Below, one piece after another: positions 10,348 to 62,850 of a stretch of DNA of 64,000 bases. Below the pieces are notes generated by a model that saw only the letters and a program-made list of their open reading frames with translations, searched no databases and was not told the DNA's origin. Both the position numbers and the translations under genes were made by a program. Source of the stretch: Escherichia phage Esco_phi_B-01; sequence record OP292222.1. One strand, given 5' to 3'. The stretch's first letter is position 1; the number at the start of each line of letters is the position of its first letter.

Positions 10348-10395
10348 GTTTACAAGGTCTATAGGCATGATACTATAGACCTATCAAAACAAACT
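10348..10395 (+). promoter_or_regulatory. PeSL early promoter cassette
   Basis: GTTTAC 10348-10353, 17-nt spacer, TACTAT 10371-10376; inverted repeat GGTCTATAG/CTATAGACC. Confidence 0.65.
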
Positions 10396-10413
10396 AACCA
10401 CATGGAACCCAAA

Positions 10414-10638
10414 ATGAAAACTTATCAAGAATTTATTACAGAAGCTAAAAAGCACGAAGACCAGCTGCCGGTTGTTACAAAAACCTTTGATGGTACACTG
10501 GCCGATTTTAAAAAAATCCCTAGTGATAAACTTGCTAAATTGACCGGAAGCATCAGCGAAAAAGATGGCAAGGTTACGTTTTCTGCCCAAGGCACCGCCA
10601 ATCTTAAAAAACTTTTGAAAGCCGCTGGTGCAGAATAA
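10414..10638 (+). CDS. internal-protein-like small protein with capsid targeting sequence
   Basis: MKTYQEFITEAKK at the second in-frame ATG. Confidence 0.6.
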   Translation: MKTYQEFITEAKKHEDQLPVVTKTFDGTLADFKKIPSDKLAKLTGSISEKDGKVTFSAQGTANLKKLLKAAGAE

Positions 10639-10646
10639 AAATAATT

Positions 10647-10695
10647 GTTTACAACGGGCCTTAGTGATGATACTATAGCCCTATCAAAACAAATG
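10647..10695 (+). promoter_or_regulatory. PeSL early promoter cassette
   Basis: GTTTAC 10647-10652, TACTAT 10671-10676, followed by CTATCAAAACAAA as in the other copies. Confidence 0.6.
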
Positions 10696-10712
10696 AGTGA
10701 TTGGAGAATAAA

Positions 10713-10898
10713 ATGAAACGATGCGAATTAATTAGAAATGTTACTGCACTGGCCGCCGTTACTGCTTTTGGCTTTAGTATGTTTGCAGGATTCATGTTGG
10801 ATTTGCTTACAACTTCCGAGAATACAATCTCTTTAGTAGTGGCATTCTTAATTGGTTCAATCTCTTTCGTTATGGATAAAATCTCTAAAGGTGAATAA
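10713..10898 (+). CDS. small membrane protein (hypothetical)
   Basis: ATG 7 nt after GGAG in the PeSL 3' arm; two hydrophobic segments. Confidence 0.45.
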   Translation: MKRCELIRNVTALAAVTAFGFSMFAGFMLDLLTTSENTISLVVAFLIGSISFVMDKISKGE

Positions 10899-11299
10899 TG
10901 AACGTTGAATATTATGTATATGCGGATTACGAAAATAATCCGTCTAAAGATGAAGATAACCGTTTAGGTGTGGATGCTTTTGAATCCCCTGCAGCGGCAT
11001 GGCAATGGGTTGAAAGAACTGATATTCCTTACCGTTATATTGAAGTGGTCGACCACGCAGGAAACAAGTATCCAAAGGAAGCCTATATCCCTTCTGGGAA
11101 GGTAAATTTCCTTTTGTTCGCGGGTGATAATTATTATCCACGTGGCGGGTATACCGATTTAATCGCTAAGGCATTTTCTGAAGACGAACTACGTAATATC
11201 ATTAAAGAAAACGAGAATAAGCCTCTTTACGGTTCTAATCGTTTTGGCTGGTGGCAGATTGTTAATGCCAATACCCACACTATTGTAGACGAGGGTTAA
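10898..11299 (+). CDS. hypothetical protein
   Basis: 133 aa ORF, ATGA overlap with upstream gene. Confidence 0.5.
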   Translation: MNVEYYVYADYENNPSKDEDNRLGVDAFESPAAAWQWVERTDIPYRYIEVVDHAGNKYPKEAYIPSGKVNFLLFAGDNYYPRGGYTDLIAKAFSEDELRNIIKENENKPLYGSNRFGWWQIVNANTHTIVDEG

Positions 11300-11590
11300 A
11301 TGTTATACGTTAAGGTTACTAATCCAGAGAATGGCTATAAATCCGATCAGGTTGCAGCTGAGTTGTTGATTCGAAATTACGGCAAAGATGCTGTGCTTGA
11401 TGTTCAACAGGTTAATATTGGCCGTAGTTCAAGCGATGTTAAACTCAAAGTTAACAGCCAACGCTATAATTCTGTTAACTTTACTTTTTATACGGCAAAT
11501 GAAAATGGGTTGGTCGAATATGACATCTTTAAAAATCCTTTGAAAATTGCTTCTATTAAACTTGATTACATTAATATGTGGCCACAATGA
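11300..11590 (+). CDS. hypothetical protein
   Basis: 96 aa ORF, tight packing. Confidence 0.5.
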   Translation: MLYVKVTNPENGYKSDQVAAELLIRNYGKDAVLDVQQVNIGRSSSDVKLKVNSQRYNSVNFTFYTANENGLVEYDIFKNPLKIASIKLDYINMWPQ

Positions 11591-12063
11591 ATATTAAATT
11601 CGGACAAATTATCCCTAAAGGTTATGCAATTGAAATTGAAACCTGGGAAAATGATGGCGATAACTATAAAACCCAGACTGTATTTGGCGTAGAAGAACAT
11701 GAAATCCAACAGTACAAATATATCCTAGAACTTTTCCATGGTTCGCATTGCAACAACCCGGATAAATGCGGTAATTCGGAATGGGACGTAGTTAAGCATT
11801 TGGTTATTGCTCACATTGAATCTGGTGTAAAATCAGGCCAATTGACTCCTGAATTTTTAGATAAAGTCCTCGGTATCCAAGACTTGGAAGCCTTGCTGAA
11901 CGATGACGAAGAAGAATACTACTTGAATGAAGCCCTTACTGAGCTCCTTGGTATGGCTTGTGAATATGGTGGCGATTTTATCCGTGCAATTTCTTATGTC
12001 AAGCTGTATATCATTGAAGAAGAAATTAAAATCCCTGATGTGAAAGCACTTGATATGCTTTAA
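11587..12063 (+). CDS. hypothetical protein
   Basis: ATG at 11587 overlaps upstream stop (ATGA); the track start is a GTG 9 nt upstream. Confidence 0.5.
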   Translation: MNIKFGQIIPKGYAIEIETWENDGDNYKTQTVFGVEEHEIQQYKYILELFHGSHCNNPDKCGNSEWDVVKHLVIAHIESGVKSGQLTPEFLDKVLGIQDLEALLNDDEEEYYLNEALTELLGMACEYGGDFIRAISYVKLYIIEEEIKIPDVKALDML

Positions 12064-12148
12064 GAATTATGTGATAATATTACTCTATCATTAATACCCT
12101 CTATTACCAAAGGTTCTTCCCTCAAAGAGCCTTTCATAATAGAATTAA

Positions 12149-12222
12149 GGCCCTGTAGCTGGACGGTCAAGCGAGCGACTCATAATCGCTGGATGGTGGT
12201 TCGATTCCACCCAGGGCCACCA
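12149..12222 (+). tRNA. tRNA with CAU anticodon (Met, or Ile if lysidine-modified as in T4 tRNA-Ile)
   Basis: acceptor GGCCCTG/CAGGGCC, anticodon stem AGCGA/TCGCT with loop CTCATAA, T-arm GGTGG-TTCGATT-CCACC, 3' CCA encoded. Confidence 0.8.
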
Positions 12223-12226
12223 ATTT

Positions 12227-12301
12227 GGATGTGTAGCTCAGTGGTAGAGCAGTTGACTGTTAATCAATTGGTCCATGGTTCGAATCCATGCATGTCCGCC
12301 A
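12227..12301 (+). tRNA. tRNA-Asn (GUU)
   Basis: acceptor GGATGTG/CATGTCC with G-U pairs, D-arm TAGCTCAGTGGTAGAGC, anticodon loop CTGTTAA, T-loop TTCGAAT, CCA encoded. Confidence 0.75.
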
Positions 12302-12305
12302 AATA

Positions 12306-12381
12306 CGAGGCATAGCTCAGAAGGAAGAGCAACGGTCTTCTAAACCGTAGGTCGTAGGTTCGATCCCTACTGTCTCGACCA
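12306..12381 (+). tRNA. tRNA-Arg (UCU)
   Basis: acceptor CGAGGCA/TGTCTCG, D-arm TAGCTCAGAAGGAAGAGC, anticodon stem ACGGT/ACCGT with loop CTTCTAA, T-arm GTAGG-TTCGATC-CCTAC, CCA encoded. Confidence 0.8.
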
Positions 12382-12551
12382 AACAAGAAACCGGGTCGCT
12401 ACCGGTAAGTCGTCGGACTGAAGTTCCCTGAATAAGACCCGACTTTAAGGAGTACATGAGTTCCTCTTAAAGTCCCTTATCTCACAGCTGAAACGGCGCA
12501 CAGAACACTTGCCTAGCAGGTGGAACCCCGACAAGGTTACCCTAGGTTAAA
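12382..12551 (+). ncRNA. candidate stable small RNA downstream of the tRNAs
   Basis: about 170 nt with no credible ORF, GC-richer and self-complementary, ending at a terminator; T4 carries stable RNAs of unknown function in its tRNA cluster. Confidence 0.3.
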
Positions 12552-12579
12552 GGCCCTTCCGAAAGGTTGGGCCTTTTTT
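12552..12579 (+). terminator. rho-independent terminator
   Basis: GGCCCTTCCGAAAGGTTGGGCC followed by a T run. Confidence 0.7.
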
Positions 12580-12580
12580 G

Positions 12581-12588
12581 TATAAATA
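12581..12588 (+). promoter_or_regulatory. late promoter TATAAATA
   Basis: exact TATAAATA 27 nt upstream of the ATG at 12615. Confidence 0.55.
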
Positions 12589-12614
12589 TACAGTAAACTA
12601 ACTTAGGAAATAAT

Positions 12615-13169: not shown

Positions 13170-13174
13170 TTTAC

Positions 13175-13202
13175 GGCCCTTCCGAAAGGTTGGGCCTTTT
13201 TG
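13175..13202 (+). terminator. rho-independent terminator (duplicate of the 12552 copy)
   Basis: identical hairpin GGCCCTTCCGAAAGGTTGGGCC plus T run. Confidence 0.7.
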
Positions 13203-13210
13203 TATAAATA
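13203..13210 (+). promoter_or_regulatory. late promoter TATAAATA
   Basis: exact TATAAATA 29 nt upstream of the ATG at 13239. Confidence 0.55.
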
Positions 13211-13238
13211 GATAAGTTAATTAACACAGGAAACAATA

Positions 13239-13862: not shown

Positions 13863-13865
13863 TGA

Positions 13866-13888
13866 AAGGAGACTTCGGTCTCCTTTTA
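13866..13888 (+). terminator. rho-independent terminator
   Basis: GGAGAC-TTCG-GTCTCC plus TTTT. Confidence 0.7.
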
Positions 13889-13921: not shown

Positions 13922-13968
13922 GTTTACACCTCCTTTAAACATGATACTATAGACCTATCAAAACAACA
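13922..13968 (+). promoter_or_regulatory. PeSL early promoter cassette
   Basis: GTTTAC 13922-13927, TACTAT 13945-13950, CTATCAAAACAAC. Confidence 0.6.
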
Positions 13969-13985
13969 GTGTGAAGGAGAGTAAA

Positions 13986-14249
13986 ATGGATAATTATGGC
14001 GAATTGTTTAATTTCTTTATGAAATGCGTTCCTGAAGAATTTGGTGCTACTGTTAACGATATTAAGGTTATAGGTGATGACCATCCCATATTTGAAACTT
14101 ACGCAGTAATGGGTAATGATGATGGACAATGGTACACCGTAAAGGTTGTGGTTAATATGTTTGCCGCCGAAGGTTATGTTAAATTGTCTACCAAAGTTTA
14201 CCATGATAACGATTTTGATGCGGAAGATTATTTCAATAATATGAAATAA
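13986..14249 (+). CDS. hypothetical protein
   Basis: ATG 7 nt after GGAGAG; 87 aa. Confidence 0.5.
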   Translation: MDNYGELFNFFMKCVPEEFGATVNDIKVIGDDHPIFETYAVMGNDDGQWYTVKVVVNMFAAEGYVKLSTKVYHDNDFDAEDYFNNMK

Positions 14250-14704: not shown

Positions 14705-14706
14705 AT

Positions 14707-14745
14707 GTTTACAACCCTCAGAGGACAGGGTATAATGTCCTCATG
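14707..14745 (+). promoter_or_regulatory. early promoter cassette with hairpin
   Basis: GTTTAC 14707-14712, 18-nt spacer, TATAAT 14731-14736; hairpin GAGGACA/TGTCCTC encloses the -10. Confidence 0.6.
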
Positions 14746-14779
14746 GATTACAAAATACCAACCGACTGAAGGAAATACT

Positions 14780-15373
14780 ATGAATACTTTAAAGAAAATT
14801 GTTGAGTTCATCCGTTCTAAACTGGGTACCGCGATGACTCAGAACCTGTCAATCGAAGACCAGTATACTAAAGCTGCTTCTACCCTGATTGATAAAATTA
14901 CCGAACTCCAGACTGCTCATGTTAAGTCTGTGAATGAAGAAAAACGCATTCGTGCATTGGCAAATGAAAAAGACCAACTGGCTGCTTCTAAAGAACGCGA
15001 AATTCGTAAACTGATTGCCGAAGGCGCCGATGTCCAGGTGCATGCTAAACTTGGCCTCCTTTATCGTCGTACAGCCACTCAACTTCGTAAGAAAGCTGAC
15101 GATTATATCGAAATGCGTAATGAAATTAAACTGAAGGTCAAGGAACTTGATGACTCTCGACAGGAACTGGCTGTTAAGCTCGAGTACATCCGTGAAACTC
15201 GTAATATGGCTGCCCTTGGTATTGCTACTGCCGATGATGTGGTTGAAATCGCTGCACTGACTAAGATTGATATTGAAGATACCCTGCTGCGTGTAGAAAC
15301 GTTTAAAGGCCCACAAGTTGGAATGGATACGACTTCTGCCGATATAGACGACTACATTAATTCACTTAAGTAA
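14780..15373 (+). CDS. hypothetical coiled-coil protein
   Basis: ATG after GAAGGAAATACT; long charged helical sequence. Confidence 0.5.
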
Positions 15374-18207: not shown

Positions 18208-19167
18208 ATGATGCTAGTTATTGGTTCTCGTGCACTGCACCACGCCGGTCTGATTGAAAGTAAGTATATCGAAAATTCTGATTGGGATTTTATTGCCGAC
18301 CAAGGCTCATGGAATCACTTTAAAGCCCGGATGTTCGGCGCTCATGTGCACGTAGACAACCCAGACGTCCAGGCTTTTAAATGCATGCACAACGGTAAAG
18401 AAACCTATTTTGAAGCTTATATCGTCCGCGCCTTGACTAACGTACGTGAAATTACCGGCGAGCTTCAGGACGAAGATTTAACCTCAAGTTATCGACTCCT
18501 GAAATACGCCGAAAATCATATTAAAAAGGATCGTCTTACAGGTTTCTATTGGGCAACGCCTGATATCTGTCTGGCTATCAAAATGAGCCATCGTTATTTG
18601 AAGAACCACCCTTTCTTTTTGAAGACGATGTCCCACATCAAATATCTTCGTAATAAAGGTGTAACCTTGAATGAAGAGCTCCAAGAAATCATGCTGCAAC
18701 GCCAGAAAGAAACGTTGAGCTATTCTCATCCTAAATTGGATGTAAACAAATCATCATTCTTTAATGATACCATTTATACATTAGACCATGACTCCATCCA
18801 CGAAGCTGTGGCATTGGCTGGACGCCCTGCATATACCTTTTATATGAAAGATGGTTCTGAAGTCATGACCTCACGTGAGAAGTTTGAAGCTTTGCCTGAA
18901 GCTATTAAACTGGCTGGCGTATATGAAGAAACTTGTGTGTTGGCCCTAGAACGTTCACAGGTTCCTAACGACTTTAATATTTCACCATCATTAAGTTTCT
19001 ATATGGCTCTTGAGAAAGTGTGTACCTCAATCACTTCAGGCTGGTTCCGCACTTATGCCTGGGAAAACTACCAAGCTGTAGTGAATATGTATAAGACGCT
19101 AGGTGAAAATGACTACATCAAGCGGTTCCAAGATAACCAACATTTAATTCGTCCTTTCACAAAATAA
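18208..19167 (+). CDS. predicted Pol-beta-superfamily nucleotidyltransferase (hypothetical)
   Basis: N-terminal IGSRALHHAGLIESKYIENSDWDF fits the GS...D-x-D nucleotidyltransferase signature; ATG after TGAGGAAAA. Confidence 0.5.
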   Translation: MMLVIGSRALHHAGLIESKYIENSDWDFIADQGSWNHFKARMFGAHVHVDNPDVQAFKCMHNGKETYFEAYIVRALTNVREITGELQDEDLTSSYRLLKYAENHIKKDRLTGFYWATPDICLAIKMSHRYLKNHPFFLKTMSHIKYLRNKGVTLNEELQEIMLQRQKETLSYSHPKLDVNKSSFFNDTIYTLDHDSIHEAVALAGRPAYTFYMKDGSEVMTSREKFEALPEAIKLAGVYEETCVLALERSQVPNDFNISPSLSFYMALEKVCTSITSGWFRTYAWENYQAVVNMYKTLGENDYIKRFQDNQHLIRPFTK

Positions 19168-19179
19168 TTGCATAAAACA

Positions 19180-19225
19180 GTATACAAGGTCTATAGGTGT
19201 GATACTATAGACCTATCAAAACAAC
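19180..19225 (+). promoter_or_regulatory. degenerate PeSL cassette (-35 mutated to GTATAC)
   Basis: GTATACAAGGTCTATAGG...TACTATAGACCTATCAAAACAAC, same as other PeSLs except in the -35. Confidence 0.45.
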
Positions 19226-19245
19226 AGAGTGAAATGGAGAATAAA

Positions 19246-19458
19246 ATGAAACTTTCTAACCAAGCAATCAACATGTTAAACGAAGTTCGTGCAGCTGGTG
19301 CTAAATGCCTGATGGTTAACACTCGTGACGGTGACCTTCGTCAAGCATTTGGTGAATTGAAATCTGCTGACCTGGTTAAATGTTCAGTTGGTATCGGTAA
19401 CGCACTTCGTGTATCTTTATCCCCTAAAGGTAAAATGTACTTTTTCAACAAAAAGTAA
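19246..19458 (+). CDS. hypothetical protein (alternative start 19234)
   Basis: ATG after GGAG of the PeSL 3' arm. Confidence 0.5.
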   Translation: MKLSNQAINMLNEVRAAGAKCLMVNTRDGDLRQAFGELKSADLVKCSVGIGNALRVSLSPKGKMYFFNKK

Positions 19459-21418: not shown

Positions 21419-21426
21419 TATAAATA
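21419..21426 (+). promoter_or_regulatory. late promoter TATAAATA of lysozyme gene e
   Basis: exact TATAAATA 23 nt upstream of the e ATG. Confidence 0.6.
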
Positions 21427-21448
21427 CCTCCTATAATCAGGAGGTATT
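21423..21448 (+). promoter_or_regulatory. RBS-sequestering hairpin of gene e
   Basis: AATACCTCCT-ATAATC-AGGAGGTATT; the 3' arm contains the SD AGGAGG. Confidence 0.6.
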
Positions 21449-21449
21449 T

Positions 21450-21938
21450 ATGGATATTTTTGATATGTTACGTCAAGACGAAGGTCTTGATTTAAATCTT
21501 TATAAAGACACCGAAGGTTATTGGACTATTGGTATAGGCCAGTTAGTTACCAAGAACCCATCTAAAGATGTTGCTCGCGCTGAACTTGATAAGCTTATGG
21601 GGCGAGTTTGTAATGGTCGTATTACTATGGCTGAAGCTGAACAGCTCTTTAACCGTTCAGTGGAAAATGCTCGTAGAGCTATAATGCGTAATCCTAAATT
21701 GAAACCGGTTTATGATGTGCTGGACGAAGTTCGTCGTTGCGCATTGATTAATATGGTCTTCCAAATGGGCGAAGCTGGTGTAGCAGGATTTACCAACTCT
21801 CTGCGTATGCTCCAACAGAAACGTTGGGATGATGCAGCAGTTAACCTGGCACAGTCTCGTTGGTACAAGCAAACCCCGAATCGTGCCAAGCGTGTTATCG
21901 CCACCTTTAAAACCGGTACTTGGGCTGCTTATAGATAA
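21450..21938 (+). CDS. e: endolysin (T4 lysozyme e homolog)
   Basis: [35 protein letters not shown] and [32 protein letters not shown] closely match T4 lysozyme. Confidence 0.9.
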
Positions 21939-21942
21939 AGCA

Positions 21943-21985
21943 GTTTACATCTCCTAGAATTGTGATAGTATATCTACAGTTACTT
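21943..21985 (+). promoter_or_regulatory. PeSL-like early promoter
   Basis: GTTTAC 21943-21948, 17-nt spacer, TAGTAT 21966-21971. Confidence 0.5.
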
Positions 21986-22021
21986 GAACAAACTAATTAA
22001 ATTTACATTTGAAGGACCCGT

Positions 22022-22618
22022 ATGAAAACGTATAAAGAATTTATCACCGAAGCTACTGCAGGAAAGGTCAAAGGCATTAATAAAGATGAGTGGACTTACC
22101 GAGGAAACGGTGTTGACCGCATAGGAAACGGCTTTGACGCTAAAACAGCTCCTATTGAACGATACTTAGCTACAAAGGCTTCCGACTTTAAAGCTTTCGC
22201 TTGGGAAGGACTTCGCTGGCGTAACGATTTGAATATTGAAGCTGATGGACTTAAATTTGGCCATATTCAAGATGTTGTTGCTAGTAACTTAGACTCGGAC
22301 TTTATTAAAGCTGATGAATCCCTTCGTCGCTGGAATTTAAAACTGTTCTCTAAACAGAAAGGTCCGGTGTTTGTACCTAAAGCAGGTAAATGGACTATTG
22401 ATAATAAATTGGCTAAGGCTGTCAACTTCGCCGGACTTGAATTTGCCAAGCATAAATCAGCATGGAAAGGTCTTGATGCAATGGCTTTTCGTAAAGAATT
22501 TGCCGATGTTATGACTAAAGCCGGCTTTAAGGCAGAACTAGATACCTCTAAAGGTACGTTTAAAGACGCTAATATTCAGTACGCTTACGCCGTTGCTAAT
22601 GCAGCCCGTGGTAATTAA
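22022..22618 (+). CDS. internal protein (IPIII-like) with capsid targeting sequence
   Basis: MKTYKEFITEA N-terminus; 198 aa; sits between e and denV where T4 has ipIII/ipII. Confidence 0.6.
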   Translation: MKTYKEFITEATAGKVKGINKDEWTYRGNGVDRIGNGFDAKTAPIERYLATKASDFKAFAWEGLRWRNDLNIEADGLKFGHIQDVVASNLDSDFIKADESLRRWNLKLFSKQKGPVFVPKAGKWTIDNKLAKAVNFAGLEFAKHKSAWKGLDAMAFRKEFADVMTKAGFKAELDTSKGTFKDANIQYAYAVANAARGN

Positions 22619-22644: not shown

Positions 22645-22693
22645 GTTTACTTCTCCTGTAGGCATGATACTATAGACCTATCAACTACAGGAG
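22645..22693 (+). promoter_or_regulatory. PeSL early promoter cassette
   Basis: GTTTAC 22645-22650, TACTAT 22668-22673; inverted repeat CTCCTGTAG/CTACAGGAG with the SD in the 3' arm. Confidence 0.7.
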
Positions 22694-22699
22694 ATTAAA

Positions 22700-23116
22700 A
22701 TGACTCGTATCAACCTTACCTTAGTATCTGAATTGGCTGACCAACACTTAATGGCCGAATATCGTGAATTACCACGTGTTTTCGGTGCAGTTCGTAAGCA
22801 TGTTGCTAACGGTAAACGTGTTCGTGATTTTAAAATCAGCCCTACTTTTATCCTTGGCACAGGCCATGTTACATTCTTTTATGATAAGCTTGAATTTTTA
22901 CGTAAGCGTCAAATTGAGCTTATAGCCGAATGTTTAAAACGTGGCTTTAATATCAAGGATACTACAGTCCAGGACATTAGTGATATTCCTCAGGAATTCC
23001 GTGGTGATTATGTTCCTCACGAAGCTTCTATCGCTATTTCACAAGCCCGTTTGGATGAAAAAATTGCACAACGCCCTACCTGGTACAAACATTATGGTAA
23101 GGCGATTTATGCATAA
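22700..23116 (+). CDS. denV: endonuclease V, pyrimidine dimer DNA glycosylase DenV
   Basis: 138 aa, essentially identical over its length to T4 DenV as I recall it. Confidence 0.9.
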
Positions 23117-24584: not shown

Positions 24585-24634
24585 GTTTACATCTCCTGTA
24601 GACGTGGTACTATAGACCTATCAACTACAGGAGA
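24585..24634 (+). promoter_or_regulatory. PeSL early promoter cassette
   Basis: GTTTAC 24585-24590, TACTAT 24608-24613; inverted repeat CTCCTGTAG/CTACAGGAG. Confidence 0.7.
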
Positions 24635-24641
24635 TTACAAA

Positions 24642-25100
24642 ATGTCAGAAATTAATTCAGAAGTATTCATCCGCCGCAACAAATTACGTCGTCAGTTCGA
24701 AACCGAATTTCGTGAACTTAACGCGTCCATCAAAAAAGCCGCCATTAAGAGCGGTGTCCCAGCTTTCTTTATTAAGTACTCTAATCACTTGTTGGACCGT
24801 GCTATCCAACGTGAAATTGACGAAAAATATGTTTTCTCTTTGTTCAAGAAGCTCCATAATCATGTTAAAGAAATCCATGAATTTTTAATCCAGGAGCCTC
24901 TTCCTGACGTAGAATCTGAAATTATCCCAGGTAAGGTGTATCGTCCACTGCGTCTCGAGATTACCGATAAAACCTTATGGTTGGGTATGACCGTAGATCG
25001 TAAACATCCTGATAAAGGATATTCATTAAAATGTCGTATGGCATTTGTTAACTCTAAACGTTTAGAAGGTAAAACCAGCACGAAAGTAATCTATCTTTAA
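24642..25100 (+). CDS. hypothetical protein
   Basis: 152 aa. Confidence 0.5.
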   Translation: MSEINSEVFIRRNKLRRQFETEFRELNASIKKAAIKSGVPAFFIKYSNHLLDRAIQREIDEKYVFSLFKKLHNHVKEIHEFLIQEPLPDVESEIIPGKVYRPLRLEITDKTLWLGMTVDRKHPDKGYSLKCRMAFVNSKRLEGKTSTKVIYL

Positions 25101-28667: not shown

Positions 28668-28672
28668 TCAAA

Positions 28673-28699
28673 GGTCTCACTTCGGTGGGACCTTTTTTC
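28673..28699 (+). terminator. rho-independent terminator
   Basis: GGTCTCAC-TTCG-GTGGGACC plus TTTTTT. Confidence 0.7.
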
Positions 28700-28707: not shown

Positions 28708-28760
28708 GTTTACATCCTCTAGGAACGTGATACTATAGACCTATCAACTAATGAGGAGAA
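28708..28760 (+). promoter_or_regulatory. PeSL early promoter cassette
   Basis: GTTTAC 28708-28713, TACTAT 28731-28736, CTATCAACTAATGAGGAG. Confidence 0.65.
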
Positions 28761-28764
28761 AGTT

Positions 28765-28947
28765 ATGTTAACTACCGAACAGATTGAGAAAATTATTAAA
28801 CTCGCCCAGCATATTGAAAACGCATCCAATGACCTAGCTGTTGAATATTGTGAAGGCTATTCATATTCCGGAATAGAGCAGTGTAAACGAGATTTGGCTA
28901 ACTCTAAAGCAGCCTTGGTTGAGTATCTTAATGAGTTGAAAGCATAA
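28765..28947 (+). CDS. hypothetical small protein
   Basis: 60 aa after PeSL. Confidence 0.45.
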   Translation: MLTTEQIEKIIKLAQHIENASNDLAVEYCEGYSYSGIEQCKRDLANSKAALVEYLNELKA

Positions 28948-31542: not shown

Positions 31543-31566
31543 AGGACCCTTCGGGGTCCTTTTTTG
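31543..31566 (+). terminator. rho-independent terminator
   Basis: GGACCC-TTCG-GGGTCC plus TTTTTT. Confidence 0.7.
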
Positions 31567-31584: not shown

Positions 31585-31640
31585 GTTTACACTCTCGTAG
31601 AGCATGTTATTATGGACCTATCAAATCTACTGAGTGAAAC
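31585..31640 (+). promoter_or_regulatory. PeSL-like early promoter
   Basis: GTTTAC 31585-31590, 17-nt spacer, TATTAT 31608-31613, CTATCAAATCTACTGAG. Confidence 0.55.
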
Positions 31641-31650
31641 GGAGAATATA

Positions 31651-32631
31651 ATGTTAACTATCAAAATCAACAAAGGTATCTATCGCGGTAATGAAATCTC
31701 TGGTACGTTCATGAGTTCAGGTAAAACCTGGTTCCCTAATAAAATTCATGAATCCGAAGCTCATCTCGGTGATGGCAAGGTATTTGTACAGATTGATGGT
31801 GTTGAACGTGGTGTGTGGGTGTTCAAATGCGACATCGAAATGGAAGGTGCTGAAGCTCATGCAATGGTTACTGAATCCTCTGAAGAAATGAAACATCGCA
31901 TCAACAAACGTTTTAAAGTAATGAACATGATGACTAACGGAATCATCGATGGTAAAATTCGTTCCCTTATCATCTCTGGTGCCGCAGGTATTGGTAAAAC
32001 GTATTCTTTGGATAAAGCATTACAAAATGCCCACGAAAATGAAACTATCGAATATAAATCAATCAACGGAAAGATTAGTGGAATCGGTCTTTACGAGCAG
32101 CTTTGGAATAACCGCGGCCCTAATAGTGTTCTTCTTATTGATGATGTTGATGTATTCTCTGACATGGATATCCTGAACCTTCTGAAAGCCGCATTGGATA
32201 CCGGTGAGAAACGTAAGGTGTGCTGGAGCACTTCAAGTTCTTATCTCGATGATAAAAATATCGATAAAGAATTCGAATACGAAGGCACCATCGTGTTCAT
32301 CACCAACGTTGATATTGACCGTGAATTAGAGCGTGGAACTAAACTTGCTCCACACCTCCAAGCTTTAGTATCTCGTTCAGTTTACTTAGACCTCGGAGTT
32401 CACTCGAATGAAGAGATTATGGTTCGTGTTGAAGACGTTATCCTGTCCACTGATATGATGCAAAACCGAGGTCTGACTGATGCTGAGACTTATCAAGCTC
32501 TAGCATGGATGAAGGCCAATGTATCTCGTCTTCGTAACGTATCATTACGCACGGCTCTTTACCTGGCGGACTTCATTGCCACCGATAAAAATGACTGGAG
32601 CGAAATCGCTGAAGTTACACTTCTGAAATAA
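31651..32631 (+). CDS. AAA-type P-loop ATPase (hypothetical)
   Basis: Walker A GAAGIGKT, Walker B VLLIDDVD; ATG after GGAGAATATA. Confidence 0.6.
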   Translation: MLTIKINKGIYRGNEISGTFMSSGKTWFPNKIHESEAHLGDGKVFVQIDGVERGVWVFKCDIEMEGAEAHAMVTESSEEMKHRINKRFKVMNMMTNGIIDGKIRSLIISGAAGIGKTYSLDKALQNAHENETIEYKSINGKISGIGLYEQLWNNRGPNSVLLIDDVDVFSDMDILNLLKAALDTGEKRKVCWSTSSSYLDDKNIDKEFEYEGTIVFITNVDIDRELERGTKLAPHLQALVSRSVYLDLGVHSNEEIMVRVEDVILSTDMMQNRGLTDAETYQALAWMKANVSRLRNVSLRTALYLADFIATDKNDWSEIAEVTLLK

Positions 32632-32985: not shown

Positions 32986-33035
32986 GTTTACATCTCCAGT
33001 AGAAATGATACTATAGACATATCAACTACTGGAGG
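32986..33035 (+). promoter_or_regulatory. PeSL early promoter cassette
   Basis: GTTTAC 32986-32991, TACTAT 33009-33014; inverted repeat CTCCAGTAG/CTACTGGAG. Confidence 0.7.
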
Positions 33036-33040
33036 TTATC

Positions 33041-33565
33041 ATGAACGCTAAAGATATTTTTTCACTGATTAATTTTAACAATGGTAATTTCAAATCTGAA
33101 AAACAAAGCAAGTTCTTTAACGACGTTGCTTGTGGTAATGAGATTACCGTATCTGGAGGAGAGATTTACAAAAGCCGTTGGAACTGGATTGCTATCATCG
33201 ATTCAGTTGGTATTGTAGAGCTCTATAAAAACACCAACAAAAAACGTACTCTTCACTGGAGTCGTGAAACCAACCAAGCTTATCAAGCTGAGCGTAATAA
33301 ACGTTTAATGCCTACCGAATCTGACCTGGCAAACGTTAAATCAGATATCGCTTATTTTGATAATCTGATTGCCGAACAACAAGCGGTTATTGATAAGTTT
33401 GACGAAATCAAAGCTTGTAAAGAGATTCCTGAATTCATGCGGGAATCAGTAAACGAACAATACGCCCTCACTTCAGGTCGTATCGAGCAGTACAAATCAC
33501 AACGAGCTGAACGCCAAGCTCTGCTTCAGAAATTTGAAGAGCGTTTAAAGACGGTTCTCGCATAA
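33041..33565 (+). CDS. hypothetical protein with C-terminal coiled coil
   Basis: 174 aa. Confidence 0.5.
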   Translation: MNAKDIFSLINFNNGNFKSEKQSKFFNDVACGNEITVSGGEIYKSRWNWIAIIDSVGIVELYKNTNKKRTLHWSRETNQAYQAERNKRLMPTESDLANVKSDIAYFDNLIAEQQAVIDKFDEIKACKEIPEFMRESVNEQYALTSGRIEQYKSQRAERQALLQKFEERLKTVLA

Positions 33566-35549: not shown

Positions 35550-35600
35550 GTTTACATCCAAGGACGGATGGAGTATAATCCTTTTATCAACTACTGAGGA
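35550..35600 (+). promoter_or_regulatory. PeSL-like early promoter
   Basis: GTTTAC 35550-35555, 18-nt spacer, TATAAT 35574-35579, then CTACTGAGGAG. Confidence 0.6.
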
Positions 35601-35607
35601 GAATATC

Positions 35608-37567: not shown

Positions 37568-37876
37568 ATGATTGAATTAAATGAACAGACCATTTTTCTA
37601 GGTGATGGCACTGAAGATGACCTAGAATATAAACTATATGAATATATGGTTTGGCTGGCTAAAGCAGAAGGTATAGACTTTGTTGTAGCTCACCCATATG
37701 GCGAGAACACCGTTGTAATTGGTGGCGTTGCTTATGAAGTCCAATGGCAATACGTCGGGCTCGAATCCGAAGAATTTGAAGAAGATGAGCATGGTGATTG
37801 GCATCCAGTTGGCCCTTGGTATTGGGAAAACGGCGAGCCTGATTTTGAAGTAATTAGTTGGTGGCGTGACCATTAA
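37568..37876 (+). CDS. hypothetical acidic Trp-rich protein
   Basis: 102 aa. Confidence 0.5.
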   Translation: MIELNEQTIFLGDGTEDDLEYKLYEYMVWLAKAEGIDFVVAHPYGENTVVIGGVAYEVQWQYVGLESEEFEEDEHGDWHPVGPWYWENGEPDFEVISWWRDH

Positions 37877-37992
37877 GCCATGGTATGTCGCTCGGTGGGA
37901 AACTACCGAGCCAGAGGAACCAGTTTACAACGATTCCGAAATAGATTATAATGAACCTTCAAACAATGATTTAATCGATATGGAGTTTGGAT

Positions 37993-38166
37993 ATGAGTAC
38001 CAAAATTGAAGTTGGCCGTCATAAAGGCCGTCTGATTGAACATTCTCTTTACGAGTTATCGGATTCGGGTTCTTTACCTGACCTAGAGTCCGATTTGATT
38101 AAAGCTGCAGCCGATTATATTCATTGGCTTGAAGCTCAACTCCGCTTTTCTGATGAGGCCTTCTGA
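37993..38166 (+). CDS. hypothetical small protein
   Basis: 57 aa ORF below the track cutoff; GGAG 7 nt upstream; stop overlaps next ATG. Confidence 0.4.
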   Translation: MSTKIEVGRHKGRLIEHSLYELSDSGSLPDLESDLIKAAADYIHWLEAQLRFSDEAF

Positions 38167-40073: not shown

Positions 40074-40127
40074 GTTTACTTCCTCTCCTCACGTGTTATA
40101 GTCTATCCTATCAACACATGAGGAGAA
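40074..40127 (+). promoter_or_regulatory. PeSL early promoter cassette
   Basis: GTTTAC 40074-40079, TATAGT 40097-40102; inverted repeat CTCCTCACGTG/CACATGAGGAG. Confidence 0.6.
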
Positions 40128-40131
40128 CATT

Positions 40132-40308
40132 ATGACTATCCAAGATAAAGAAATTAAAGTCAACCAGTATTATTCAATCAACGGCAAAGCTGTTCTAGTA
40201 ACTGAAATATCTAGCCTGGACGTGTGGTATACCATAATCGACCTTAATATTAAAATGATTTGTGACCGTGGTGTATTTTGTTCGATAGCTAAGGAAATTA
40301 AATTATGA
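40132..40308 (+). CDS. hypothetical small protein
   Basis: 58 aa ORF below the track cutoff; ATG after AGGAGAACATT. Confidence 0.4.
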   Translation: MTIQDKEIKVNQYYSINGKAVLVTEISSLDVWYTIIDLNIKMICDRGVFCSIAKEIKL

Positions 40309-40561: not shown

Positions 40562-40855
40562 ATGGGTAAAACTATCCGTCGTAAAGAATTGCCATCTAGA
40601 GATTTTAATTGCATTGCTAGACGTAAAGCACCTGATGGCGTATCGGAAGAAACTTTGAATGAAAATATCTTCCGGTCAGATAAATGGAAACGCTTTAGCG
40701 GTGTTGATTCTGAAGTTAAGAATGAAATGAATCGCCAACTTCGTAAAGAAGTGAGAAAGCTGAAAAAAGATGTTTACAACGACGATGAACCTGATTACAA
40801 TACTTCTCATCGAGTTGCAAAACGTAAATCAAACGAGTGCTATCGTTACAGCTGA
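40562..40855 (+). CDS. hypothetical basic protein
   Basis: 97 aa. Confidence 0.5.
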   Translation: MGKTIRRKELPSRDFNCIARRKAPDGVSEETLNENIFRSDKWKRFSGVDSEVKNEMNRQLRKEVRKLKKDVYNDDEPDYNTSHRVAKRKSNECYRYS

Positions 40856-40994: not shown

Positions 40995-41195
40995 ATGAAT
41001 CCTGAATCTAAATTATCACAACGAATTGCTGAAGCCCGTCGTCAGTTCTTTGAAAATATGGTAGCTCAAGGTATTGATGACGAAGTTTTTCTAAACTGGT
41101 TTTGGAATAACAAATATTCAAAATGCGCAGGAGCAATATTAATATCAGCCGCCGCGATGTATGAAGGTTGGAAAGGTGCATTAGCACAAAAATAG
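40995..41195 (+). CDS. hypothetical protein
   Basis: 66 aa. Confidence 0.45.
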   Translation: MNPESKLSQRIAEARRQFFENMVAQGIDDEVFLNWFWNNKYSKCAGAILISAAAMYEGWKGALAQK

Positions 41196-41240
41196 TTTAC
41201 AAACTCTTGGGACCAGAGTATAATGGTCCTACGGATTATA
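41195..41240 (+). promoter_or_regulatory. PeSL-like early promoter
   Basis: GTTTAC 41195-41200, 18-nt spacer, TATAAT 41219-41224; short hairpin GGACC/GGTCC. Confidence 0.6.
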
Positions 41241-41263
41241 AATTTTAAACTGAGGAAATTATT

Positions 41264-41593
41264 ATGTCACAAGCTATTAAAAACGTACTGAACTCTTTCG
41301 CTTTCGATAAAGTTAATGAACTGATGAAAACTGGCTTTGTAACTCCTCAGGTTCTTGACCAATGGGTTGCTGAACTGTTACCAATTATGCATTCTAAAGA
41401 CCAAAAAATCGGTAAGAATGGTATTCGTGAAATCCTGGTTCAATATATTCTTGATGAGTTTGATGTTGCTGCCTTCGGTGTTGAATCTAAAGCTTGGCAC
41501 CCAGGTGAAATCACAGACAAAACCATCCGTCGTATGAAGAACCAACGTAAGAAAAAATTCGTTGACCTGAAAATTGTTAAGGCTGCGAAATGA
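41264..41593 (+). CDS. hypothetical protein
   Basis: 109 aa; RBS TGAGGAAAT upstream. Confidence 0.5.
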   Translation: MSQAIKNVLNSFAFDKVNELMKTGFVTPQVLDQWVAELLPIMHSKDQKIGKNGIREILVQYILDEFDVAAFGVESKAWHPGEITDKTIRRMKNQRKKKFVDLKIVKAAK

Positions 41594-53516: not shown

Positions 53517-53570
53517 GTTTACATACCACATGGAACGTGGTATTATCCTTCCTATCAACTACATGAGGAA
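53517..53570 (+). promoter_or_regulatory. PeSL-like early promoter
   Basis: GTTTAC 53517-53522, TATTAT 53541-53546, CCTATCAACTACATGAGGAA. Confidence 0.55.
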
Positions 53571-53576
53571 ATTATA

Positions 53577-53813
53577 ATGGAAGCTTTAATCGTTAGTGCT
53601 GGTGTTTTAGGATTCGGTTCTCTGGCTATTATGTTCATTGGTTACTTTTTACCATGGATTCTAGCTCTTTTGCGAGGCACCCGTAGCAATGTCGGAATCT
53701 TCTTCCTTAATCTCTTGTTAGGATGGACGATGATTGGTTGGGTAGTGGCTTTAATCTGGGCCATCGTCGCTGAACGTAAATCAAACGCACAAATCATTAT
53801 CGTTAAACAATGA
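53577..53813 (+). CDS. imm: superinfection immunity protein Imm-like
   Basis: 78 aa, two TM helices, LLGWTMIGWVVALIWA motif; immediately after gene 43 as in T4. Confidence 0.65.
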   Translation: MEALIVSAGVLGFGSLAIMFIGYFLPWILALLRGTRSNVGIFFLNLLLGWTMIGWVVALIWAIVAERKSNAQIIIVKQ

Positions 53814-60387: not shown

Positions 60388-61811
60388 AAACTATTTTGGC
60401 TCAACTGCTAGGCAATAGTGATTATTTCACTAAGGTCTGGCCTTATATGAATGATTCTTATTTTGACCAGGGTCCGGCAAAGACCCTTTTCAAAGAAATC
60501 AAAAAACATGTCAATGAATATAATGCGGTGCCTTCTAAAAATGCTTTGAGTATTGCATTAGATAACAGCACCCTTTCAGAAGTTGAACATCAAGGAGCTA
60601 AAGAGCTTTTAAATTCTCTGAATGCAGGCCCTGAAGACCAAGAATGGTTGGTTAAAGAGACAGAGAAATATGTTCAGAAGGCAGCGATGTATAATGCCAC
60701 TTCAAAAATTATTGAAATTCAAACTAATGCCGACCTTCCGGTTGAGCAACAAAATAGAAAACTCCCAGGTATTGGTGCTATTCCAGATATCATGCGTGAT
60801 GCATTATCGATTTGTTTCGATTCTGAATTAGGCCATGACTGGATGGATGACTATGAAGAACGTTTTAAAAGTTATTCTGATAAAGCACGTAAGGTTCCAT
60901 TCCGTCTTAATATTCTGAATAAGATTACTAAGGGTGGCGCTGAGTTTGGTACTGAAAACGTATTGTTAGCAGGAACAAACGTAGGTAAGTCTCTGGGTCT
61001 GTGTTCATTGGCTGCTGATTACCTTCAATCCGGTTACGATGTTCTTTATATCTCCATGGAGATGGCAGAGGAAGTATGTGCTAAGCGTATCGATGCTAAC
61101 CTTCTAGATGTATCACTGGATGATATTGATGATGGTCACGTCTCATGGCCTGAATATAAAGCCAAGATGGATAAGTGGCGTTCAACTGCTACTTTAGGTC
61201 GTTTAAAGATTAAACAGTATCCTACTGGTGGTGCTAATGCCGATACATTCCGTGCATTATTAAACGAATACAAGCTCAAACAAAACTTTGTCCCACAGGT
61301 CGTTATCGTCGACTACTTGGCCATCTGTGCTTCATCCCGTACGAAAGTTTTCTCTGAAAACAGTTATGGATTGATTAAGATGGTTGCCGAAGAACTACGT
61401 GGACTTGCAGTAGAGAAGAAATTATTGTTGTGGACTGCAGCCCAGACTACTCGTGGCGCGAACGTTGCAGCCGAAATCGATATGGCTGATATCGCTGAAT
61501 CCTTTGGTATTGCACATACTGCAGACTTCATGTTAGGTGTGGTCGAGACAGAAGAGTTTGCTCAGATGGGTATGCAGATGGTTAAGCAGCTTAAATCCCG
61601 TTATGGTGATAAGAGCTACTACAACAAATTTAAGATTGGTGTTAAGAAAGGAAACCAGCGTTGGTATGAAGTTGAAGACGATTCTAACCCAGGCCCAGTG
61701 AACACCGTTCGTGAGGCTACAGGTGAAATGAATCGCCAAGCAGAGGTCAATCGTCAGTCGCGTGTTAATAGAAGCGATTTAGACGATTTAGCAGCATCTA
61801 TCAAATTTTAA
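60372..61811 (+). CDS. 41: replicative DNA helicase gp41 (DnaB-like), GTG start
   Basis: VEVVETILAQL... parallels T4 MVEIILSHL; Walker A LLAGTNVGKS; ISMEMAEEVCAKRIDAN; 479 aa. Confidence 0.9.
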   Translation: MVEVVETILAQLLGNSDYFTKVWPYMNDSYFDQGPAKTLFKEIKKHVNEYNAVPSKNALSIALDNSTLSEVEHQGAKELLNSLNAGPEDQEWLVKETEKYVQKAAMYNATSKIIEIQTNADLPVEQQNRKLPGIGAIPDIMRDALSICFDSELGHDWMDDYEERFKSYSDKARKVPFRLNILNKITKGGAEFGTENVLLAGTNVGKSLGLCSLAADYLQSGYDVLYISMEMAEEVCAKRIDANLLDVSLDDIDDGHVSWPEYKAKMDKWRSTATLGRLKIKQYPTGGANADTFRALLNEYKLKQNFVPQVVIVDYLAICASSRTKVFSENSYGLIKMVAEELRGLAVEKKLLLWTAAQTTRGANVAAEIDMADIAESFGIAHTADFMLGVVETEEFAQMGMQMVKQLKSRYGDKSYYNKFKIGVKKGNQRWYEVEDDSNPGPVNTVREATGEMNRQAEVNRQSRVNRSDLDDLAASIKF

Positions 61812-61832
61812 GGAGCTTCGGCTCCTTTTTTG
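61811..61832 (+). terminator. rho-independent terminator
   Basis: GGAGC-TTCG-GCTCC plus TTTTTT. Confidence 0.7.
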
Positions 61833-61840
61833 TTTTAAGG

Positions 61841-61890
61841 GTTTACTTCTCCTGTAGGCATGATACTATAGACCTGTCAACTAATGGAGA
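61841..61890 (+). promoter_or_regulatory. PeSL early promoter cassette
   Basis: GTTTAC 61841-61846, TACTAT 61864-61869, CTCCTGTAGG...CTAATGGAG. Confidence 0.65.
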
Positions 61891-61895
61891 ACAAA

Positions 61896-62213
61896 ATGAA
61901 AACCATCGACTGTAAAGCGGAATATAAAGTGTATTACCATGGAAGTTGTAGTGTTGCTAATATTGGTAATATGCTTTGTCCTCCTGAGGAAACAGGAGTT
62001 CTGTCTGAAACTGGTCGTAAGAAAAACCTGAACCGTGTGTTCTTTACTGAAGATATTGGTTTGGCTAAGATTTATGCTGGCCGAGCTGCTCGTTCGGTGG
62101 GAGGAGAACCTCGTCTTTATCGTGTAATTGCTCCGGTAGATGTGGTTTGTTTAAATGATACCAAAGGCGCTACGGTTTATCACGCTGAATGGGCCTTCTG
62201 TGAGGAAATCTAA
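61896..62213 (+). CDS. hypothetical protein (alternative start 61884)
   Basis: ATG after GGAG of the PeSL 3' arm. Confidence 0.5.
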   Translation: MKTIDCKAEYKVYYHGSCSVANIGNMLCPPEETGVLSETGRKKNLNRVFFTEDIGLAKIYAGRAARSVGGEPRLYRVIAPVDVVCLNDTKGATVYHAEWAFCEEI

Positions 62214-62417
62214 ATGTTTAAATTAGAAATCGTAGTGTTTATTGGTTGGTTTGAAAATGGTAATATGTTTACCAAAGAAACTGCGCTGGATGTTAGTGAC
62301 CAAAAAATGATTGAATGGGTTACAGTGCAGTATGCAGAAGTGAATAATGCACTGGTGAAAGCCTTTGTTAATGACAATAAAGTTTTTGAATATGATGCCC
62401 GCATTGAGGAAATCTAA
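62214..62417 (+). CDS. hypothetical protein
   Basis: 67 aa; N-terminal hydrophobic segment. Confidence 0.45.
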   Translation: MFKLEIVVFIGWFENGNMFTKETALDVSDQKMIEWVTVQYAEVNNALVKAFVNDNKVFEYDARIEEI

Positions 62418-62558
62418 ATGGAAGAGGTTGAATGTGTAGTATGTGGTTGTTCGGTATGTGAAGACCAGGCGGTATTTGATGCTTGGGACAACGCAACTTG
62501 TTTAGACTGCGATAGCGAATACGAAGAAATTGCTCATAAACATGAAGACGAGGAATAA
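62418..62558 (+). CDS. small Cys-rich acidic protein (possible zinc ribbon)
   Basis: 46 aa ORF below the track cutoff; CVVCGCSVC...CLDC. Confidence 0.35.
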   Translation: MEEVECVVCGCSVCEDQAVFDAWDNATCLDCDSEYEEIAHKHEDEE

Positions 62559-62798
62559 ATGAATATTGTATTAATGAAGCCGACCTCTAGCTCTTTTTGG
62601 AATAAATCTTTTGGTAAGCATAATATGTTTATCCAACGCACCGTAAGCAGCTGGGAACTAGTTCTTTCAGTCGGTCACAACGATTATGAACAAGAATACG
62701 TAGAGTTCTTCGAATTTCCTGTGAAGCCTACTAAGCGTCAGATTCGTCAGACCAAACATAAATTCCGTAAAATTTATTTGGAAGATTCATTAAAATAA
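62559..62798 (+). CDS. hypothetical protein
   Basis: 79 aa. Confidence 0.45.
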   Translation: MNIVLMKPTSSSFWNKSFGKHNMFIQRTVSSWELVLSVGHNDYEQEYVEFFEFPVKPTKRQIRQTKHKFRKIYLEDSLK

Positions 62799-62799
62799 A

Positions 62800-62850
62800 G
62801 TTTACAACGGTCTATGGTAGTGATACTATAGACCTATCAACTAATGAGGA
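62800..62850 (+). promoter_or_regulatory. PeSL early promoter cassette
   Basis: GTTTAC 62800-62805, TACTAT 62824-62829; inverted repeat GGTCTATGG/CTATAGACC; CTATCAACTAATGAGGAG. Confidence 0.65.

Follow-up and report, generated by a model that had tools for sequence, protein, structure and literature searches.

The window analysed here is a 64,000-nt stretch of the genome of Escherichia phage Esco_phi_B-01 (OP292222.1), and the elements in question are 17 intergenic promoter cassettes. By type they are early (sigma-70) promoters as known from T4-type phages, of the promoter early stem-loop (PeSL) kind already in print, each predicted from its sequence to head a short early transcription unit. 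G+C content is about 39% along the whole window, which matches JS98-like T4-type coliphages (Dhakavirus: JS98, JS10, IME08, AnYang and others) at 91-98% identity, its + strand corresponding to the minus strand of JS98. Gene order runs 57B ... tRNAs ... e, ipIII, denV, vs genes, regB, vs, tk ... nrdC genes ... 49 ... 55 ... 47, 46, 45, 44, 62, regA, 43 ... uvsX, 40, 41. Coverage of the window by the relatives is mosaic, 46-84%, over 10-35 kb versus 95-99% over 39-64 kb, and 12 of the 17 cassettes lie in the variable 10-36 kb part. The cassettes themselves are already known as PeSLs; the subject here is what their stems may do to the next gene's ribosome-binding site.

Within the window the motif GTTTAC-N16-19-TAYWAT has 16 matches, where shuffles would give 0.33 +/- 0.60; every one is on the + strand, and a GTATAC variant at 19180 brings the tally to the 17 copies counted in an initial annotation of this sequence. 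The number is right, although the membership changes. Fifteen of those copies are complete intergenic cassettes, whereas 37923 and 40772 were rejected as intragenic hexamer matches (within the open reading frames (ORFs) 37866-38009 and 40562-40855) that come without leader, Shine-Dalgarno sequence (SD) or ATG. A relaxed scan of the intergenic gaps adds two cassettes, 21943 (-10 TAGTAT, upstream of ipIII) and 40074 (-10 TATAGT), overlooked earlier because their -10 departs from the pattern used, for a corrected total of 17. The two rejected matches (37923-37952 and 40772-40801, + strand) are perfect GTTTAC-N18-TATAAT/TACAAT sequences within coding sequence and are possible internal promoters.

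Each cassette reads, in order, A/T-rich tract, -35 GTTTAC, 17-18-nt spacer ending in TGn, -10 TAYWAT, discriminator (consensus AGNCCT, CU-rich in all classes described below), ATCAA..., GGAG-type SD and ATG; ten window cassettes have in common the near-identical core TGATACTATAGACCTATCAA. PeSLs are described as sitting in many copies in hyperplastic early regions, with some indel joints between -10 and SD (PMC2839356, PMC4122927). Their stems in RB49 lie "between the -35 and -10" or overlap the -10 (PMC2839356), the PST/T4 promoter consensus is TTTACW-N17-TAYWAT, and PeSL-like sequences occur near JS98 gene 43 (PMC2839356, PMC4122927). The window cassettes fit that consensus and share with PeSLs (PMC2839356, PMC4122927) the A/T tract, a predicted sigma-70-type promoter, a stem between its boxes or over the -10, and SD and start codon at the 3' end. 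That these are early-promoter cassettes of the PeSL type in a T4-type phage, as originally assigned, is thus correct by sequence definition and by the published descriptions. An Rfam scan of the whole window returned three tRNAs only, none of its described RNA families covering the cassettes.

The predicted start of transcription (+1) was placed at the A of ATCAA, 7 nt past the -10; a start about 7 nt after the -10 is standard sigma-70 geometry. Every 5' arm of the stems lies upstream of this start, in the spacer, in the discriminator or upstream of the -35, so that the stems would form only in RNAs begun further upstream. Summed over 15 cassettes, the duplex energy of each spacer with its own -10-to-ATG region is -199 kcal/mol, compared with -95 +/- 9 for shuffled spacers. 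Of these 15, 11 are individually significant (p<0.03), and at 28708, 31585, 35550 and 53517 spacer complementarity against shuffled spacers is weak or absent; altogether, five or six of the 17 cassettes have weak or no stems.

The stems follow two designs. Class A, displaying a spacer block paired with the six bases between -10 and +1, with the -10 in the loop and the hairpin ending exactly at -1, includes 10348, 10647, 14707, 19180 (inner hairpin), 41195 and 62800. Class B, in which the SD is paired with the 5' end region of the spacer, 30-odd nt away, and lies in a 9-11-bp helix in the MFE folds, includes 22645, 24585, 32986 and 40074; the composite structure at 19180 is added to it on account of its outer helix, whose 5' arm lies upstream of the promoter. 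The cassettes are as follows, with minimum free energies (MFE) in kcal/mol for read-through RNA unless assigned to the cassette's own transcript.

10348-10416, + strand: class A cassette; stem AGGTCTATAG (10355-10364) with CTATAGACCT (10373-10382), predicted +1 at 10383; spacer pairing p=0.000, hairpin in the MFE fold (z -3.98), SD not occluded; indel breakpoints in 5/6 relatives.
10647-10715, + strand: class A cassette; stem GGGCCTTAG (10656-10664) with CTATAGCCC (10673-10681), pairing p=0.018; compensatory T-A to G-C change relative to the stem of 10348; a 265-nt insertion directly upstream in 5 relatives.
13922-13988, + strand: cassette with weak SD pairing, CTCCTT (13930-13935) with AAGGAG (13974-13979); spacer pairing p=0.011, but class B p (pB) 0.065 and fold z -0.15.
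14707-14782, + strand: class A cassette; GAGGAC (14721-14726) with GTCCTC (14737-14742), -10 TATAAT in the loop; covariation.
19141-19248, + strand: composite cassette 19180 (-35 GTATAC); class A hairpin (19187-19196 with 19205-19214) nested in an outer helix of 19141-19160, the end of the upstream ORF, with SD and AUG at 19229-19248; opening-energy difference 8.4 kcal/mol, whatever the promoter core; MFE -29.9 (z -4.97), compared with -1.0 for the own transcript.
21943-22024, + strand: cassette upstream of ipIII, missed initially; TGn and -10 TAGTAT; no significant stem.
22645-22702, + strand: class B cassette upstream of denV; spacer arm CTCCTGTAG (22653-22661) with SD arm CTACAGGAG (22685-22693); opening-energy difference 11.2 versus 2.0 shuffled; MFE -23.6, z -4.63, own transcript -1.0.
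24585-24644, + strand: class B cassette upstream of regB; arms 24593-24601 and 24625-24633; opening-energy difference 8.4; MFE -19.2, z -2.88.
28708-28767, + strand: cassette with a weak stem, TCCTC with GAGGA; pairing p=0.052.
31585-31653, + strand: cassette, -10 TATTAT, no significant stem (p=0.12); breakpoints in 4 relatives.
32986-33043, + strand: class B cassette upstream of an nrdC.8 homologue; arms 32993-33002 and 33026-33035; opening-energy difference 13.8; MFE -22.4, z -4.76; compensatory T-A to A-T change relative to 22645.
35550-35610, + strand: cassette, -10 TATAAT, no significant stem (p=0.20).
40074-40134, + strand: class B cassette missed initially, -10 TATAGT; TCTCCTCA (40084-40091) with TGAGGAGA (40119-40126); MFE -22.8, z -4.28, own transcript -2.3.
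41195-41266, + strand: class A cassette; GGGACC (41209-41214) with GGTCCT (41225-41230), p=0.007; covariation.
53517-53579, + strand: cassette directly after gene 43, -10 TATTAT, no significant stem (p=0.25).
61841-61898, + strand: cassette with a degenerate class B stem, CTCCTGTAG with CTAATGGAG, two mismatches; in IMG/VR genome 2974739009 the orthologous arms match perfectly, as CTCCAGTAG/CTACTGGAG.
62800-62860, + strand: class A cassette; GGTCTATGG (62809-62817) with CTATAGACC (62826-62834), one G-U pair; p=0.000, z -2.85.

Of the arm positions given originally, 22653/22685 and 24593/24625 are exact, while the third pair is one base off, CTCCAGTAG starting at 32994 and CTACTGGAG at 33026. 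The proposal that 19180, with its mutated -35, is a decaying copy is unsupported: the -35 is polymorphic in relatives (GTTTAC, GTATAC, GTGTAC), and stem, -10 and leader are intact within an elaborate conserved structure.

Folding with and without the 5' arm, the check suggested in the initial annotation, separates the two classes. At class B the SD is predicted to close, the read-through penalty being 8-14 kcal/mol at 22645, 24585, 32986 and 19180. At the first three of these, exposing SD and AUG costs 3.5-4.8 kcal/mol on the own transcript and 12.9-18.6 on read-through RNA, and with a shuffled promoter core the penalty is only 0-2 kcal/mol. The four class B read-through RNAs have MFE values of -19 to -24 kcal/mol (z -2.9 to -4.8), versus -1 to -2.3 (z about 0) for class B own transcripts. 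At the class A cassettes of the window, SD accessibility is unchanged by the 5' arm, with an opening-energy difference of about 0; stems of the AGGTCTATAG/CTATAGACCT type lie wholly upstream of the predicted start and leave the SD untouched. Occlusion of the SD on read-through RNA, as first claimed, is therefore borne out by folding and covariation at 22645, 24585, 32986, 40074 and 19180, but not for most copies.

The same partition is seen beyond the window. A broad survey covered 313 unique cassettes from coliphage-type T4 relatives (class calls at p<=0.01; an earlier set held 197 cassettes), and a comparative set of 25 T4-like genomes was stitched from IMG/VR 20-kb loci found with DenV, 57B, gp49 and UvsX. 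Among the 313 cassettes, 85 are class A and 46 class B, and the classes are nearly exclusive, only three cassettes of the 197-cassette set belonging to both at once. In the survey the opening-energy difference has a mean of 10.9 in class B and 0.74 in class A, with 2.26 in cassettes without stems and 1.54 in shuffled controls, and the difference is at least 5 in 87% of class B versus 6% of shuffled controls. Class A stems were rejected as SD occluders, their mean over the 85 cassettes lying below the shuffled control. The class A penalty is also lower than that of stemless, terminator-free cassettes (p=5e-7), and shuffling its spacer alone raises the penalty slightly; as a conjecture from these folding models, class A may hold the SD accessible on read-through RNA by tying up the CU-rich discriminator.

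Covariation is seen in both classes. Some 39 T4-like loci were compared in the region upstream of denV and regB; arm sequences differ there while complementarity to the SD is kept in most lineages, as in the pairs CTCCTGTAG/CTACAGGAG, CCTCCAAG/CTTGGAGG, CTCCGTTTG/CAAACGGAG, CTCCTCTAG/CTAGAGGAG, CTCCTTTTAG/CTAAAAGGAG and CCTCATTTG/CAAATGAGG; in some lineages, including a T4-type genome, the -10/discriminator serves as 5' arm instead of the spacer. The class B helix is recovered by RNAalifold, and pair counts show 88.9% of positions paired, compared with 74.5% after shuffling and 47-57% after sliding; the covariation score is 0.474 versus 0.236 (0/500 shuffles). Twelve class A cassettes of identical geometry are 100% paired, with 24 doubly changed cells versus 6.8 and a covariation of 0.92 versus 0.36, and 20 different discriminator hexamers each have their own matching spacer. 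Own partners pair much better than foreign ones, at -15.1 versus -7.0 for class B and -13.7 versus -4.4 for class A. Positions departing from Watson-Crick pairing are of the G-U type in 55 cases and of the A-C type in 11, a tolerance implying that one strand matters, that of the sense RNA; in an ortholog of 40074 the helix is preserved by two G-U pairs. T4-like phages of Aeromonas (genomes of 221-233 kb), which use a TTGACA -35 instead of GTTTAC, have the class A geometry as well, the spacer block pairing with the six bases past the -10, for example in GTGTGGCC ... GGCCAC and GCGACC ... GGTCGC; the design is thus older than the split between these lineages. That the inverted repeats are a protein operator, the site of a dimeric repressor, was rejected, since the arms are free to vary in sequence and nonetheless stay complementary.

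Four canonical intrinsic terminators with T-runs lie upstream of cassettes in the window.

13865-13887, + strand: intrinsic-terminator-like hairpin just upstream of cassette 13922; GGAGAC-TTCG-GTCTCC followed by a T-run.
28670-28698, + strand: intrinsic terminator immediately upstream of cassette 28708; 11-bp stem followed by a T-run.
31543-31565, + strand: intrinsic terminator upstream of cassette 31585; AGGACCC-TTCG-GGGTCCT followed by T6.
61810-61831, + strand: intrinsic terminator upstream of cassette 61841; GGAGC-TTCG-GCTCC followed by T6.

The first of these is flanked by U/A-rich runs on both sides, appears on the minus strand in the scan listing and may terminate bidirectionally. The four cassettes concerned, 13922, 28708, 31585 and 61841, are those with weak or degenerate stems. 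In the broad survey an intrinsic terminator within 70 nt upstream accompanies 3/131 strong-stem cassettes versus 58/182 others (Fisher p=2e-12), and orthologous sites alternate between stem and upstream terminator. Since strong stems hardly ever occur with an upstream terminator, the stems appear to act on read-through RNA. The excess of G-U-type positions and the class B opening penalty likewise point to read-through RNA of the sense strand.

Taken together, these data may point to the following arrangement, which is favoured here with moderate confidence and builds on the anatomy of the sequences, on predicted thermodynamics, on covariation, on the exclusivity between stems and terminators and on where breakpoints lie: the cassettes would be PeSL early promoters, a minority of which carry a class B gate on the SD in read-through RNA, with alternation between stem and terminator and with the core serving as recombination homology. 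In class B, sequence preceding the start would pair with the SD, and sometimes the AUG, of the next gene, giving read-through RNA with a closed ribosome site, while the cassette's own transcript, which should be without the 5' arm, would have an open one. Late RNA from the e promoter at 21419, for instance, would cross ipIII into denV with the denV SD closed, and regB is predicted to carry the same gate. In class A the spacer block would tie up six discriminator bases with the -10 in the loop, and the SD would, if anything, stay open. In place of a strong stem, the remaining cassettes in many cases have a canonical intrinsic terminator a short way upstream, and the conserved 20-45-nt core could double as a homology patch that joins some gene-sized indels and swaps.

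A related design is known from T4 genes e, soc, 49 and I-TevI, in which the SD and/or AUG is buried on the long RNA and a promoter in or just before the 5' arm yields a translatable RNA (PMC3014915). Class B resembles it in the SD/AUG helix on upstream transcripts and, by prediction, in an own-promoter transcript without the 5' arm. In the T4 cases the internal promoter is late (TATAAATA) and the silenced RNA early, whereas in class B the internal promoter is early sigma-70 and the silenced RNA would be read-through from upstream early or late promoters, so that the temporal logic is reversed. TATAAATA occurs at none of the cassettes and, on the + strand of the window, only at 6419, 12581, 13203, 21419, 27906 and 63773; as the cassettes carry early-type boxes and no TATAAATA, they are not strict members of the late-promoter hairpin gate. 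Class B is proposed, by analogy, as the early-promoter counterpart of the e/soc/49/I-TevI arrangement. The frequency of TATAAATA equals chance overall (7 vs 6.8), and the motif was used only for locating the e promoter. The classical T4-type ribosome-site hairpin of gene e (lysozyme) is present at 21419-21452 (+ strand) with a 14-bp stem, TATAAATACCTCCT ... AGGAGGTATTTATG, in which the late promoter TATAAATA is the 5' arm; it provides an internal positive control for the promoter-in-hairpin design.

T4 early promoters are described as UP, -35 GTTTAC, TGn and -10 with "additional regions of consensus" (PMC2988021), and all of these elements are found in the window cassettes. The difference lies in the explanation, as the extra AGNCCT, the ATCAA at +1 and the complementary spacer blocks are here ascribed to RNA pairing and not to polymerase contacts. 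The predicted SD gate and the trichotomy of class A, class B and terminator are new relative to described PeSLs and late-promoter hairpins. In the PeSL papers the stem figures as a terminator or attenuator, and the word translation is absent from them (0 occurrences); the window stems differ in showing two exclusive architectures, one aimed at the SD, in being without U-tracts and in their exclusivity with true upstream terminators.

Several points weigh against the favoured arrangement. Occlusion of the SD is found in only 5/17 window cassettes, so the gate is not a general cassette property, and the "SD kept open" effect of class A is a small one of about 0.2-0.7 kcal/mol. The starts are predictions made solely from promoter geometry, and the start sites, the existence of read-through RNA and the blocking of translation by folding in vivo are all presumed. 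The cassette sets are phylogenetically non-independent; when cassettes are grouped by downstream gene the exclusivity with terminators weakens to 6/60 vs 28/91, and the covariation alignments come from cassettes preselected for stems, which biases the percentages of paired positions and, less so, the covariation measures. Reviews of post-transcriptional control in T4 give late-promoter hairpins only (PMC3014915), and in the literature searched, gating of the SD from an early promoter in T4 was likewise absent, the cases being late-promoter ones; papers from the 1980s to 2003 were outside this scope and may hold such hairpins. Cassette junctions, finally, show no significant excess of breakpoints over cassette-free junctions of at least 40 nt (13/26) in the six relatives compared below.

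Two further points on the same side belong to the original reading of PeSLs, that the stems are transcription terminators or attenuators acting on upstream polymerase and overlap the SD incidentally. One RB49 PeSL stem, the only one with experimental evidence, cut expression comparably to rrnB T1 when placed between promoter and lacZ, which was read as transcription termination (Arbiol et al., PMC2839356), and exclusivity between stem and upstream terminator is what would be expected of redundant terminator devices; Comeau et al. (PMC4122927) accordingly describe the elements as composite promoter-terminator motifs. This explanation is unlikely, though it is the strongest of the competitors. 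U-tracts are missing after the intra-promoter stems at every window cassette, the next bases being ATCAA(A)AC, ATGGATTA and similar, while the four upstream terminators have their T-run, and the stems were rejected as canonical intrinsic terminators on this ground. Loops of class B, at 20-30 nt, are not terminator-like. The 3' arm of class B is the SD in every lineage while the 5' arm moves among spacer, discriminator and sequence upstream of the -35, which argues that the SD is the selected target.

Somewhat less probable again is that the helices protect RNA, either by burying the GGAG of the SD from RegB on middle or late read-through RNA or as a barrier to RNase E/G and 3' exonucleases. 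RegB inactivates early, not later, mRNAs, and its synthesis is tightly controlled. A GGAG SD followed by an A-rich stretch precedes nearly all cassette-driven genes (10705, 13976, 19238, 22690, 24630, 28755, 31640, 33031, 35598, 40122, 61886, 62849), and GGAG is the motif cut by the RegB endoribonuclease, encoded in the same window at 24642-25100; because their SDs carry this motif, the sequence suggests that the cassette-driven genes are RegB targets. Protection would account for class B helices that bury exactly GGAG and for class A hairpins ending exactly at -1, where they would flank the leader of processed RNAs. However, several class B 3' arms are without GGAG (CAAATGAGG, AAGAGGA) and still cover the SD, and the helices often reach the AUG. 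A protective role is moreover compatible with translational gating and not its alternative.

The role of the cassettes in recombination was assessed by aligning the window to six close relatives. Of the cassette junctions, 11/17 have an indel or replacement breakpoint, versus 31/89 of the others (odds ratio 3.4, p=0.03), and 14 of 43 segmental events touch a cassette, 4 with both ends and 10 with one, leaving 29 with none. The association of cassettes with breakpoints is real but modest, and most modules are not delimited by cassettes; the initial description of the cassettes as delimiting shuffled modules is overstated in view of the long-gap comparison and of the number of events that touch a cassette. 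Left out of the counts as assembly artefacts were the gaps of about 100 nt in IMG/VR uncultivated virus genome (UViG) 2974741249 (155,101 bp), in which around a dozen blocks of almost exactly 100 nt are missing from conserved genes relative to the window (query gap about 100, subject gap 0-1), resembling assembly or scaffolding artefacts and not biology.

Individual events are instructive. In IMG/VR genome 2706795356 a hybrid cassette combines the promoter of 13922 with the leader of 14707, the two intervening genes being missing and the joint lying between -10 and SD. ipIII is flanked by cassettes 21943 and 22645, and the module is swapped in relatives with joints at those cassettes. The two cassettes share an upstream CTTATAGATAAA, GTTTAC and a CTCCT-containing spacer, and the ipIII module of 721-772 nt is replaced in relatives by 366-406 nt of other sequence, in likeness to published internal-protein locus shuffling. 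In that work on T-even phages (Repoila et al. 1994, via PMC4122927), the internal protein (IP) locus is shuffled; ipIII likewise lies between similar promoter cassettes and is replaced in close relatives with joints there, with the difference that only one locus is concerned here and most window indels are without a cassette at their ends. Relatives also have an extra ORF between SD and ATG of cassette 28708.

These events would be expected if the inverted repeats acted at the DNA level and not in expression, whether as recombination signals in hairpin or cruciform form or as repeated homology for shuffling and mini-circles: breakpoints are enriched at cassettes, the 13922 x 14707 deletion has its joint where those of RB49 mini-circles are reported, and two similar cassettes bound ipIII. 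As an explanation of the stems this is nonetheless improbable. Recombination needs homology between copies, yet the arms differ between cassettes and are self-complementary within each; the tolerance of G-T over A-C implies a single strand; an action in DNA should not depend on an upstream terminator, but the stems do; and two-thirds of the segmental events (29/43) touch no cassette, the enrichment being gone against other long gaps. Finally, that the complementarity is a mere by-product, either of recent duplication of a chance palindrome, as the core common to ten window cassettes could suggest, or of a CU-rich promoter pairing with a purine-rich SD by composition, is highly improbable and already contradicted by the advantage of own over same-composition foreign partners, by the rarity of differences of at least 5 in shuffled controls and by the many independent compensatory changes.

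The favoured class B gate can be extended to a gene-by-gene "read-through policy" with three options, switched in evolution, in which the PeSL stem would be mainly a translational device; this extension is tentative and rather doubtful. Under it, class B would leave a gene translatable only from its own early promoter, confining RegB and DenV to the immediate-early window, class A would tie up the discriminator and keep the SD open on read-through RNA, and an upstream intrinsic terminator would abolish read-through. If gating is true, about 15% of the 313 surveyed cassettes would head early genes translated only from their own promoter, a hard-wired layer of early-gene shut-off in addition to cleavage by RegB and to early-promoter silencing, which is as yet unexplained. 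The PeSL stem, so far a terminator and recombination signal, would be reinterpreted, and conserved non-consensus positions of T4-type early promoters would be explained. The prediction is testable in T4 itself, because T4-type denV has the same architecture. For annotation and phage engineering, shifting or deleting a cassette could alter translation of the next gene besides its transcription.

Two smaller observations concern the cassettes and their surroundings. In leaders of the ATCAAAAC type (10383-10390, 10683-10690, 13957-13964 and 19215-19222), AAAC can pair with GUUU(A) of the -35 and stack on the class A hairpin, which would give read-through RNA a longer irregular stem reaching from the -35 to about +12, as in the MFE folds of 10338-10426 and 10637-10725. 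The three tRNAs (Met-CAT, Asn-GTT and Arg-TCT) form a cluster at 12149-12381 (+ strand) in the hyperplastic region, with indels on either side in several relatives.

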